A stretch of 20,069 nucleotides of DNA from a virus (taxonomy: Duplodnaviria > Heunggongvirae > Uroviricota > Caudoviricetes), in IMG/VR virus record IMGVR_UViG_2778261642_000012, positions 1 to 20,069 of that record. The stretch is one strand, 5' to 3'. Made by a program: the position numbers. Shown here one piece after another: positions 17,401 through 20,069 of this stretch; positions within the stretch are counted from its first letter, which is position 1; every line of letters begins with the position of its first letter.

Positions 17401-20069
17401 ACCGAACGCCGCGATCTCGGGCTTGATGATGGCTCTTTCTGGCCTGTACTGGAAGGCATCCCGGCAACAGAGATGTTCAACGTGATTCCACTGGCACCGG
17501 GCCATGCCTACGGGATGTTTATGGAACGTTTTAACGAGTTATCGGAGTTACGCAAATGCGCATGAATGTTTTCGAAATGGAAGGGTTTCTTCGCAGGAAA
17601 TGTGTACCGCGAGATCTGAAAGTGAACGAAACAAATGCTGAGTACCTGGTACGTAAATTCGATGCGCTTGAAGCTAAATGTGCGGCACTGGAAAACAAAA
17701 TAATACCAGTGTCAGCTGAACTGCCACCAGCAAATGAAAGTGTTCTGTTATTTGATGCTAACGGAGAAGGCTGGCTAATTGGCTGGCGTTCTCTCTGGTA
17801 CACCTGGGGACAAAAAGAAACCGGAGAATGGCAGTGGACATTTCAGGTCGGGGACCTTGAAAACGTCAATATCACTCACTGGGCAGTAATGCCAAAAGCA
17901 CCGGAGGCTGGAGCATAATGACCACATTTACCAATAAAGAACTGATTAAAGAAATCAAAGAACGAATCAGCAGCCTAGAGGTTCGAGACGATATTGAGCG
18001 CCGTGCTTATGAAATTGCTCTGGCATCGCTGGAAGAGGATCCGGTGGCATGGCTGCATTCAGACAATGGCTTAGGTATTCCGGCAATAACCAGGAGTAAA
18101 AACATTGCTGACAGTTGGTTATCAAAGGGCTGGTATGTTCAGCCGCTATATATAGCCAAGCCAGTGCCGGTGGTGCCAGATGCTCGTCCATCTTTAAATA
18201 ATGGCATAGTCGGTTTTGATGAAGGCTGGAACGCCTGCCGCGCTGCCATGCTCTATGGTGCCGTACCTGCAAGCAAGGCTTACAAGTTGCCACAAACGCA
18301 GTTTAAACAGGTTGCTGACCTCTACGAAATGCAATTTGATGACGGTCGCACTTGTGCCTTTCACACTGATGCGCAAAAGGCTGTGCAATGGCTTCAGGCG
18401 TTCGACGGAAACAGGGTTCAGGAATACGTTAAGCTGGAACGATTGCAGAACGCACTGTCTGGCAACTCTCCGGTAACTCCGGATGGTTGGGTTATGGTGC
18501 CGAAGAGACTAACAGCCGAGAACGGCGCTAAGGGGGCGCTATCCGGTGAATTTTCAGAAACTACGTTTATAAGCTGCCTGGAATGCTTTGGCGATGATGA
18601 TTGCGATACCTGTGACGGAAGCGGACGTATTGAAATTAAAGTGCCAGTCACGTGGTCGACCATAAAATCTATCTGGGATAAAGGTATCGAGTATTTTGCA
18701 GCAAAACCATCACAAGAGGTGAAGTGATGAACAACTTAATGATCGACCTTGAGACGATGGGGAAAAATAAGGATGCACCGATCGTTTCCATTGGCGCGGT
18801 GTTCTTCACTCCAGAAACCGGAGACATCGGACAAGAATTCTATACGGTTGTTAGCCTGGACAGTGCTATGAAGCAAGGAGCTACACCTGACGGCGATACC
18901 ATCCTGTGGTGGTTGAAACAGAGCTCTGAAGCACGAGCTGCAATCTGTATTGATGATACTTTGTCGATCAGCGATGCACTCTCTGAACTGAGCCATTTCA
19001 TTAATCAGCATGCAGACAATACAAAATATTTAAAAGTCTGGGGTAACGGGGCCACCTTCGACAACGTAATTTTACGTGGAGCTTACGAGCGAGCAGGACA
19101 AATCTGCCCGTGGGCGTACTGGAATGACCACGATGTACGCACGATCGTTACGCTTGGGCGTTCCATCGGATTCGACCCAAAAATGGACATGCCTTTCGAT
19201 GGCGAACGGCACAACGCCCTGGCTGATGCCCGTCATCAGGCAAAATATGTTTCCGCTATCTGGCAGAAACTAATTCCTGCCACCAGCACAGAATTATGAT
19301 TTTCCCGGGTGCAGCCGGTTTTGATGGAGAAAATTATGAACACCTTGTTTTTACTGATGGCTGAATTCAATACCCCAAACATTGAGCTGTCAGCTGTATG
19401 CCAAAAGTATTTCGGTATGAGCCCTAACACAGCAGAAGCGAAAGCAAATGCATGCCAATTGCCGCTCCCGACTTATCGTGTTGGTACATCACAGAAAGCA
19501 AAGCGCTGCATCAACATTCAGGATCTTGCTGAATATATAGATAAACGGCGTGAAGAAGGCAGAATTGAATGGGAGAGGGTAAGAACAAATAGGAAAATAA
19601 ATAACTAATCTCACAAAAAACCCGCTTCGGCGGGTTAGTTTTCATCTTTATAATTCTGGGCAATTCGCGCCAGATAGCTCATCACATCATGTTTTCTTGC
19701 TTTTTCATGTGCATCGGGATACATAATAGCAATGAGTGAATATTTATTCTCATAAAGCTCACCTTGGACATACACAAGACAAGCATCATTATCAGGATCA
19801 CCTTTCTTGCAGACCCTATCCGGTTGTGGAAGTTTCTCGGGAAACTTGTTTGGCGGTAGACAAAGATGGATATGCATCAACCCAGCCCGAAAAGCACCAT
19901 AGGGCTGAGTATACGCAACGTCCCTACCGAAATAATGCGGAAGCTCACCGGTTGCTTTGTATCTCTTGAAATCATCAATGATAGAAGACTCTAGCTCCGG
20001 GAATTTGAGAAAAACTTCATCAAAAAATTCAGCTCTAGTTTCTGGATTAATAGAGACTTCTAGATGCAT

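Follow-up and report, generated by a model that had tools for sequence, protein, structure and literature searches.

A YafO-family toxin of a dusA-integrated lambdoid prophage is paired with an unrelated partner family in place of YafN

What accompanies a YafO-like toxin gene that lies at the very edge of a phage sequence? The 20,069-nt window analysed in this work (IMG/VR virus record IMGVR_UViG_2778261642_000012, positions 1 to 20,069, Caudoviricetes) closes with an open reading frame (ORF) on its minus strand. An earlier reading, made from the sequence alone and referred to here as the sequence-only reading, had likened its product to the mRNA endonuclease toxin YafO and expected an antitoxin beyond the window. 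The toxin itself is ordinary and is already routinely annotated. What is new is the partner family that is paired with a whole YafO clade of temperate phages, from Escherichia coli to Pseudomonas, in which it replaces the antitoxin YafN and carries an N-terminus resembling an export signal. The two genes, with the toxin second, form a cassette that on balance probably constitutes a self-contained switch of the toxin-antitoxin type, lodged in a cargo slot between attP/int and xis.

An intact YafO-family toxin gene

The locus was followed beyond the window on the chromosome of E. coli B1W1 (locus L001), which is 100% identical over window positions 19300-20069. Fifty records match this segment at 99% identity or more, and 49 of 5426 complete E. 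coli genomes contain a locus that covers 80% or more of it. The complete coding sequence (CDS) of the toxin, the distal gene of the two-gene cassette, occupies positions 19635-20069 on the minus strand and encodes 144 aa, with an ATG start and a TAA stop at 19637-19635. The ATG forms the final three bases of the window, position 20069 being the A of the start codon. The sequence-only reading had assigned 19615-20069 to this ORF; the ORF is real, but positions 19615-19634 are non-coding. That reading had also allowed for a true start lying further upstream and giving a different protein. Such a start is excluded by an in-frame TAG four codons 5' of the ATG, at 8782-8780 of the identical L001 record.

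The likeness to YafO was borne out at the level of family and fold. The 144-aa product matched PF13957 (YafO_toxin) in Pfam over profile positions 1-100 of 101 (E = 1.9e-21, 76.5 bits, with a gathering cut-off of 25 bits) and shares 36% identity over 117 aa with YafO of E. coli K-12 (E = 2e-19). RefSeq names the identical sequence 'type II toxin-antitoxin system YafO family toxin' (WP_000549966.1), and the label 'YafO family toxin' is attached to the identical protein on at least 1000 contigs. Homologues numbered 43, of approximately 144-146 aa, with PF13957 present in all 43. An alignment of 17 sequences that included K-12 YafO contained 18 invariant columns, comprising Asp33, Phe34, Phe47, Gly48, Tyr53, Pro56, His66-Ile67-His68, Phe76, Gln82 and Arg85, followed by Leu98-Val99-Tyr100, Gly103, Pro118 and His121. 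The AlphaFold2 (AF2) model of the toxin (pLDDT 94.7, pTM 0.90) shows a RelE/HigB-type (RelE/ParE, BECR) fold, and a sequence search of the PDB returned no solved structure from the YafO family. Sequence identity to HigB2, HigB1, RelE, YafQ and YoeB is just 6-17%. The ratio of non-synonymous to synonymous substitution (dN/dS) relative to the Phytobacter orthologue is 0.165. The 144-aa ORF is thus an intact YafO-family, RelE-fold putative endoribonuclease toxin gene under purifying selection.

Membership of the family does not extend to orthology with K-12 YafO. Against the NCBIfam YafO equivalog (NF007377 / PRK09885) the toxin scored 75.8 bits, under the cut-off of 153, and it is therefore a member of the YafO family and not the K-12 YafO orthologue. 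Relative to K-12 YafO it has approximately 12 additional residues at the N-terminus and a six-residue insert, CKKGDP. K-12 YafO has been described as an mRNA interferase and the toxin of the yafNO pair (PMC2814082), and its dependence on the ribosome is disputed (PMC8546651; PMC11980606). The description of the window-edge toxin as a 'ribosome-dependent' endonuclease, as first proposed for this ORF, is accordingly contested already for YafO itself (PMC8546651).

The co-inherited partner gene

Upstream of the toxin lies a co-oriented ORF of 179 aa (L001 9326-8787, same strand as the toxin), annotated 'hypothetical protein' (WP_042029622.1) and separated from the toxin ATG by 16 nt. The sequence-only reading had predicted a cognate antitoxin at this place, with the attachment site and integrase to be sought further out, and extension of the window located this gene as well as the prophage end and the integrase. 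The expected position is indeed taken by a co-oriented and strictly co-inherited gene, but its product is not YafN (Phd/YefM-type). Comparison with K-12 YafN gave only E = 0.25 over 22 aa in BLASTP and a probability of 3% in hhalign, and on these grounds the partner was rejected as a YafN or Phd-like antitoxin. Every named member of the E. coli partner cluster that was read in NCBI and UniRef is 'hypothetical'. The record of phage PhiR40_1 carries the label 'YafM antitoxin', a depositor or pipeline name for which no supporting study was found, and the label was set aside.

The association of the two genes held wherever the toxin was found with upstream DNA. In a scan of one genome per species, a partner homologue lay directly 5' of the toxin at 21/21 loci, spanning Pantoea, Phytobacter, Enterobacter, Rouxiella, Photorhabdus, Xenorhabdus, Pseudomonas and relatives, Halomonas and Orbaceae, with one metagenome-assembled genome labelled Phycisphaerae. 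The partner was detected by single-sequence phmmer at 17 of these loci and at the other four by a profile built without them (E = 3e-25 to 7e-7). The IMG/VR loci whose sequence reaches beyond the toxin start agreed, the partner preceding the toxin in 68/68 of them and thus in 89/89 together with the genome loci, and the reverse search, starting from the partner, found the toxin downstream in 35/35 loci. The gap between the genes is 0-35 nt over distant taxa, and dN/dS values of 0.13-0.17 indicate purifying selection on both genes. As judged from these comparisons, co-inheritance argues for a functional coupling of toxin and partner. In a second copy of the cassette in Xenorhabdus bharatensis (L025 3421-4297), only the toxin is damaged, by a frameshift after approximately 24 codons, and the 188-aa partner remains intact. 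The converse, an intact toxin beside a broken partner, was never seen among the loci. Toxin-first erosion, of which this is a single case, is the order expected of a poison and its antidote.

These data bear directly on a more deflationary account, in which there is no poison-antidote pair and a weak or regulatory RNase, or a decayed toxin, is co-transcribed with an unrelated exported protein of lysogenic conversion. In transcriptome-wide mapping, K-12 YafO and HicA cleaved more weakly than any other toxin tested (PMC8546651), which is consistent with such an account, as are the acidic character of the toxin deduced from its sequence, unlike many RelE-type toxins, and the lack of any match to a PADLOC defence model. 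It is nevertheless very improbable given co-occurrence at 89/89 and 35/35 loci with gaps of 0-35 nt in distant taxa, the retention of every invariant residue of the YafO family, a toxin dN/dS of 0.165, and toxin erosion ahead of the partner in L025, as expected of a real toxin.

The cassette is not a canonical YafNO system. The two share the toxin family PF13957, all 18 invariant residues and the order of partner followed by toxin with a short gap. However, K-12 YafNO has the antitoxin YafN, to which the partner is unrelated, and forms part of the dinB-yafN-yafO-yafP operon, whereas the neighbours of the cassette are phage genes and dusA, with neither dinB nor yafP. The K-12 pair belongs to the chromosomal core and is under SOS (LexA) control, whereas the cassette is phage-borne and has no LexA box at its promoter. 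Neither a YafN-type antitoxin, nor an SOS/dinB context, nor an equivalog score above the cut-off is found. The antitoxins of RelE-superfamily pairs are DNA binders of the helix-turn-helix (HTH), ribbon-helix-helix (RHH) or Phd type, none of which was recognised in the partner.

A survey of Pseudomonas prophages lists YafO among toxins that lack a paired antitoxin (PMC10449497). In the loci examined here, all cassettes of the Pseudomonas clade have the partner, and these cassettes suggest that prophage surveys of this kind (PMC10449497) probably missed it. At least ten IMG/VR contigs end exactly at the toxin ATG as the window does. With those truncated no more than 10 nt from the toxin start included, the number of such IMG/VR prophage contigs rises to 12, and others end exactly at the start of the partner. 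Boundary callers therefore often split or trim the operon, and a toxin treated in this way would look like an orphan.

Partner properties and control of the toxin

The partner belongs to a family without a recognised domain. Eleven diverse partners, namely the 179-aa protein and ten diverged members, gave only sub-threshold noise against Pfam, and the same was true of the partner against NCBIfam. PHROG matches were to phrog_8416, which is the partner's own group, and phrog_1651, both annotated 'unknown function'. Among 1.84 billion proteins the family comprised 23 cluster representatives at E <= 1e-3, mostly 172-205 aa in length, with a few fragments and one protein of 249 aa. The AF2 model of the partner is all-helical, consisting of a low-confidence N-terminal helix, a disordered linker and a helical bundle. 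The N-terminus is organised like a Sec signal peptide in every clade, beginning with a few neutral or basic residues, continuing with 10-20 uncharged hydrophobic ones and ending with small residues at positions -3 and -1, as in MKTTLSICAAALSMALSSPNVLA/RE, MNLSLRNCLAVVLFGGVLSVPSFS/AG, PAALA/QE, VPSFS/AG, NVLA/RE and SVQA/AA.

Such N-termini raise the possibility of a two-compartment device, in which an exported or membrane-anchored partner reports an event at the envelope and the cytoplasmic YafO-like RNase acts as the effector. The event could be entry of DNA from a superinfecting phage, failure of Sec or of the proton-motive force, or the action of a holin. Control would then operate by export-coupled removal of the partner precursor or by membrane tethering, and not through a soluble DNA-binding antitoxin. 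The signal-peptide-like layout is kept in all clades even though the sequences themselves are unrelated, the AF2 layout of helix, linker and bundle suits an exported or tethered protein, no DNA-binding domain was detected, and other phages carry the cassette among their tail genes, downstream of the major tail protein. The tail-gene region is known to house superinfection-exclusion morons such as HK97 gp15. This device is nonetheless unlikely. Within Enterobacterales, residues 1-32 are the best-conserved segment of the partner (81% mean pairwise identity vs 52% for the rest), which is atypical of a cleaved signal peptide, and the hydrophobic stretches are not long enough to form a stable transmembrane helix. 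A literature search on exported, periplasmic or membrane-anchored antitoxins found no precedent.

The promoter region of the cassette offers a second line of evidence; all coordinates given for it are those of L001, minus strand, outside the window. A promoter-like element, identified by consensus match only, consists of TTGACC (9408-9403) and TAGACT (9385-9380) separated by a 17-nt spacer. Alignment of the cassettes showed this TTGACC-17-TAGACT arrangement to be kept in position and sequence across genera despite divergent upstream regions, and the Shine-Dalgarno sequence GAGGTTG to be invariant. Two palindromes flank the -10 element, ACAACCGCGGTTAT at 9398-9385 and ATAGCTAAGGCTAT at 9370-9357, the latter at approximately +4 to +17. 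The motif ATA[AG]C-N4-G[CT]TAT was counted 15 times (1.39 per kb) in the 200-nt promoter windows, distributed over 14/54 unique cassettes, whereas 477 kb of flanking sequence contained it only 3 times (0.006 per kb), an enrichment at the promoter of approximately 220-fold. The arms of the palindrome vary jointly, ATAGC/GCTAT in some cassettes and ATAAC/GTTAT in others, and some loci have one copy inside the untranscribed spacer between -35 and -10. Joint changes in the arms, together with the location in the spacer, favour a DNA operator over an RNA hairpin, and the palindromes are therefore considered putative operators. Operator-like palindromes at the promoter also suggest a cytoplasmic DNA-binding activity encoded by the cassette, which again speaks against the exported sensor.

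Two further candidate elements were considered in this region. The 200 nt preceding the partner gene contained no site resembling a LexA box, and LexA control of the kind known for dinB-yafNOP was rejected for the cassette. A perfect tandem repeat, TATGAATAGA x2 (coding strand TCTATTCATA), lies at L001 9434-9453, 26-45 nt upstream of the -35 element. Sister phages with the same att arm do not have the TCTATTCATA repeats, which fall within cassette-specific DNA and are therefore not integrase arm sites.

The conserved N-terminus and the palindromes could also be accommodated by a type II antitoxin with its domains reversed, in which the N-terminal hydrophobic segment would fold onto the RNase and the C-terminal helical domain would dimerise and bind the operator. 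The N-terminal region of Vibrio cholerae HigA2 acts on HigB2 in such a manner. In addition to being the best-conserved part of the partner, the N-terminal segment is under strong purifying selection (dN/dS 0.08-0.18), and the presence of palindromes on the promoter fits this arrangement. A sequence-specific binding motif would not, however, be expected to reduce to a generic signal layout in clades with wholly different sequences, and for this reason the reversed-domain arrangement is judged quite unlikely.

Under the favoured interpretation, a self-contained toxin-antitoxin-type switch, partner and toxin would be produced from one transcript in the lysogen and the partner would keep the RNase inactive through direct binding. 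The candidate contacts with the toxin are the conserved N-terminal segment of the partner or its C-terminal helix, which has a conserved terminal Phe-His. The cassette promoter would probably be repressed, via the palindromes over the -10 and the transcription start, by this complex or by the partner alone. Should the partner be lost or titrated, for example during shut-off by a superinfecting phage or upon loss of the prophage, the toxin would be free to cleave mRNA and growth arrest would follow, which could exclude other phages, retain the prophage or do both. That the toxin is toxic, that the partner neutralises it as an antitoxin, that the pair regulates itself and what it does in the lysogen are all inferred.

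Several observations weigh against this interpretation. The partner is larger than the toxin (179 and 144 aa, respectively), and scans of domain libraries detected no recognisable DNA-binding or known antitoxin domain in it. PADLOC-DB v2 returned no defence family at E <= 1 for either protein, and the equivalog score below the cut-off means that the biochemistry of K-12 YafO is not simply transferable. The palindrome occurs in only 14/54 unique cassettes, the other clades having different inverted repeats or none detected. By a crude rule, 37/41 members of the partner family have a signal-like N-terminus vs 2/18 control ORFs from the window; if the partner is exported, simple sequestration of a cytoplasmic RNase would be impossible.

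An exchangeable cargo slot at the prophage end

The cassette measures approximately 1.15 kb and consists of the promoter, the 179-aa partner gene, the 16-nt gap, the toxin gene and a bidirectional terminator. Positions 19612-20069 (minus strand) are the part of this swappable unit that falls inside the window, and the remainder, with the partner gene, promoter and palindromes, extends beyond it from L001 8771 to approximately 9460. The terminator hairpin, AACCCGC-TTCG-GCGGGTT, occupies 19619-19636, overlaps the toxin stop codon and was located by a terminator scan of the identical L001 8320-8337. It is G+C-rich, with an RNA folding energy of -13.4 kcal/mol and z = -2.76. Given the T runs that flank the hairpin on both strands, it is predicted to be a bidirectional intrinsic terminator, and it would act as the end of both the toxin operon and the convergent gene.

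That convergent gene, on the plus strand at 19336-19608 (RefSeq CDS at L001 8037-8309), is of the PrtN family (PF11112, E = 2.1e-24). It takes the position of an excisionase and is the last gene of the early-left operon, so that the convergence of the toxin gene on this operon, recognised from the window alone, is upheld. The gene is part of the context and stands outside the cassette; its homologue in mEp460 is annotated as excisionase and lies beside attP/int. Elsewhere in the window, a near-consensus LexA box, TACTGTATGTAAAAACAGTA, is present at 14463-14482, within an XRE/cI-like repressor ORF (14254-14946, plus strand). None is expected there by chance according to shuffled sequences, and the box may mark an internal or antisense promoter under SOS control.

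Beyond the cassette, approximately 200 nt upstream of the partner, a 5' remnant of dusA that is 35 codons long adjoins host DNA with yjbM, zur, dinF and lexA. The remnant marks the end of the prophage, and the tyrosine integrase is located at the opposite end, adjoining an intact dusA. Integrases specific for the 5' end of dusA are a described class, and the element that carries the cassette is a lambdoid prophage inserted into dusA at its 5' end. The genes of PhiR40_1, PhiR55_1 and mEp460 run in the order DinI-like, int, attP, cargo, PrtN-like 'excisionase' and exonuclease, and PhiR40_1 and PhiR55_1 carry a 99.6% identical cassette. From this order, the circular phage has the cassette flanked by xis on one side and attP/int on the other, and integration leaves it at the end opposite int. 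The sequence-only reading had placed the toxin where an integrase would be expected after the excisionase-like gene; the slot does lie between that gene and attP/int, although the integrated prophage has int at its other end.

The prophage copy in B1W1 (loci L107 and L001; record positions 4376711-4409050) spans only approximately 32 kb, with the cassette intact. It is probably defective, as suggested by this length and by several truncated structural genes, namely those for a ClpP-like protease and a tail fibre and an RdgC fragment. In E. coli SX12 the cassette is present on the chromosome and also on a 55.6-kb record (NZ_CP142787.1, 30807-31576), which could represent a plasmid, a phage in excised or episomal form, or an artefact of assembly.

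Comparison with collinear phages defined the unit of exchange. PhiR47_1, phiSTEC1575-Stx2k, 1720a-02 and mEp460 match the window only up to positions 19559-19611, with the match ending at 19611 in PhiR47_1 and phiSTEC1575-Stx2k and at 19608 in 1720a-02, and on the att side the cassette-less sister phages share only approximately 63-71 nt. As homology breaks on both sides, the swapped unit is the whole cassette of promoter, partner, toxin and terminator. The same slot in PhiR47_1 (L143 308-1352) and in the Stx2k-converting phage phiSTEC1575-Stx2k (L144 308-1352) holds the Panacea-domain antitoxin PanA (PF13274, E = 5.9e-18), followed by a gene that the depositors labelled PanT toxin. The PanA/PanT pair agrees with the cassette in slot (flanked by the same att arm and the same PrtN-like gene), orientation, two-gene layout and approximate size, but its proteins (a PF13274 antitoxin and another toxin) are unrelated to those of the cassette. 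Occupation of one slot by both therefore identifies it as an exchangeable site for toxin-antitoxin or defence cargo. In mEp460 the slot contains two unrelated ORFs; one of these phage products, gp23 (177 aa), was considered as a diverged partner and rejected, having no similarity.

The cassette is not confined to this slot. In four loci from other temperate phages it is situated in the tail-gene cluster (at approximately position 5001 of each), for example after the major tail protein, and in three loci of Photorhabdus and Xenorhabdus it lies among ORFs that resemble P2-type baseplate genes, as judged by eye from their translations. It resembles phage morons in having its own promoter-like element and terminator, in its presence or absence in collinear phages and in its varied genomic positions. 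Morons of the conversion type, however, are single genes, whereas the cassette is a two-gene module of the poison type. It behaves as an autonomous moron and stands at the prophage end, in agreement with the moron at a prophage boundary that had been suggested for the toxin.

These findings mark the int/attP-xis slot of dusA-integrating lambdoid phages as an exchangeable toxin-antitoxin cargo site. PhiR40.1 and PhiR47.1 are functional phages (PMC13190303), and they provide a natural near-isogenic pair for the cargo of this slot. If the partner acts as an antitoxin, it would represent a new antitoxin family. If it is instead Sec-exported or tethered, a cytoplasmic RelE-fold RNase would be governed by export or the status of the envelope in place of a soluble, protease-labile DNA-binding antitoxin, which would be a new control logic for toxin-antitoxin-like phage-exclusion modules, and export of the partner would explain the prophage YafO toxins that have been reported as orphans.

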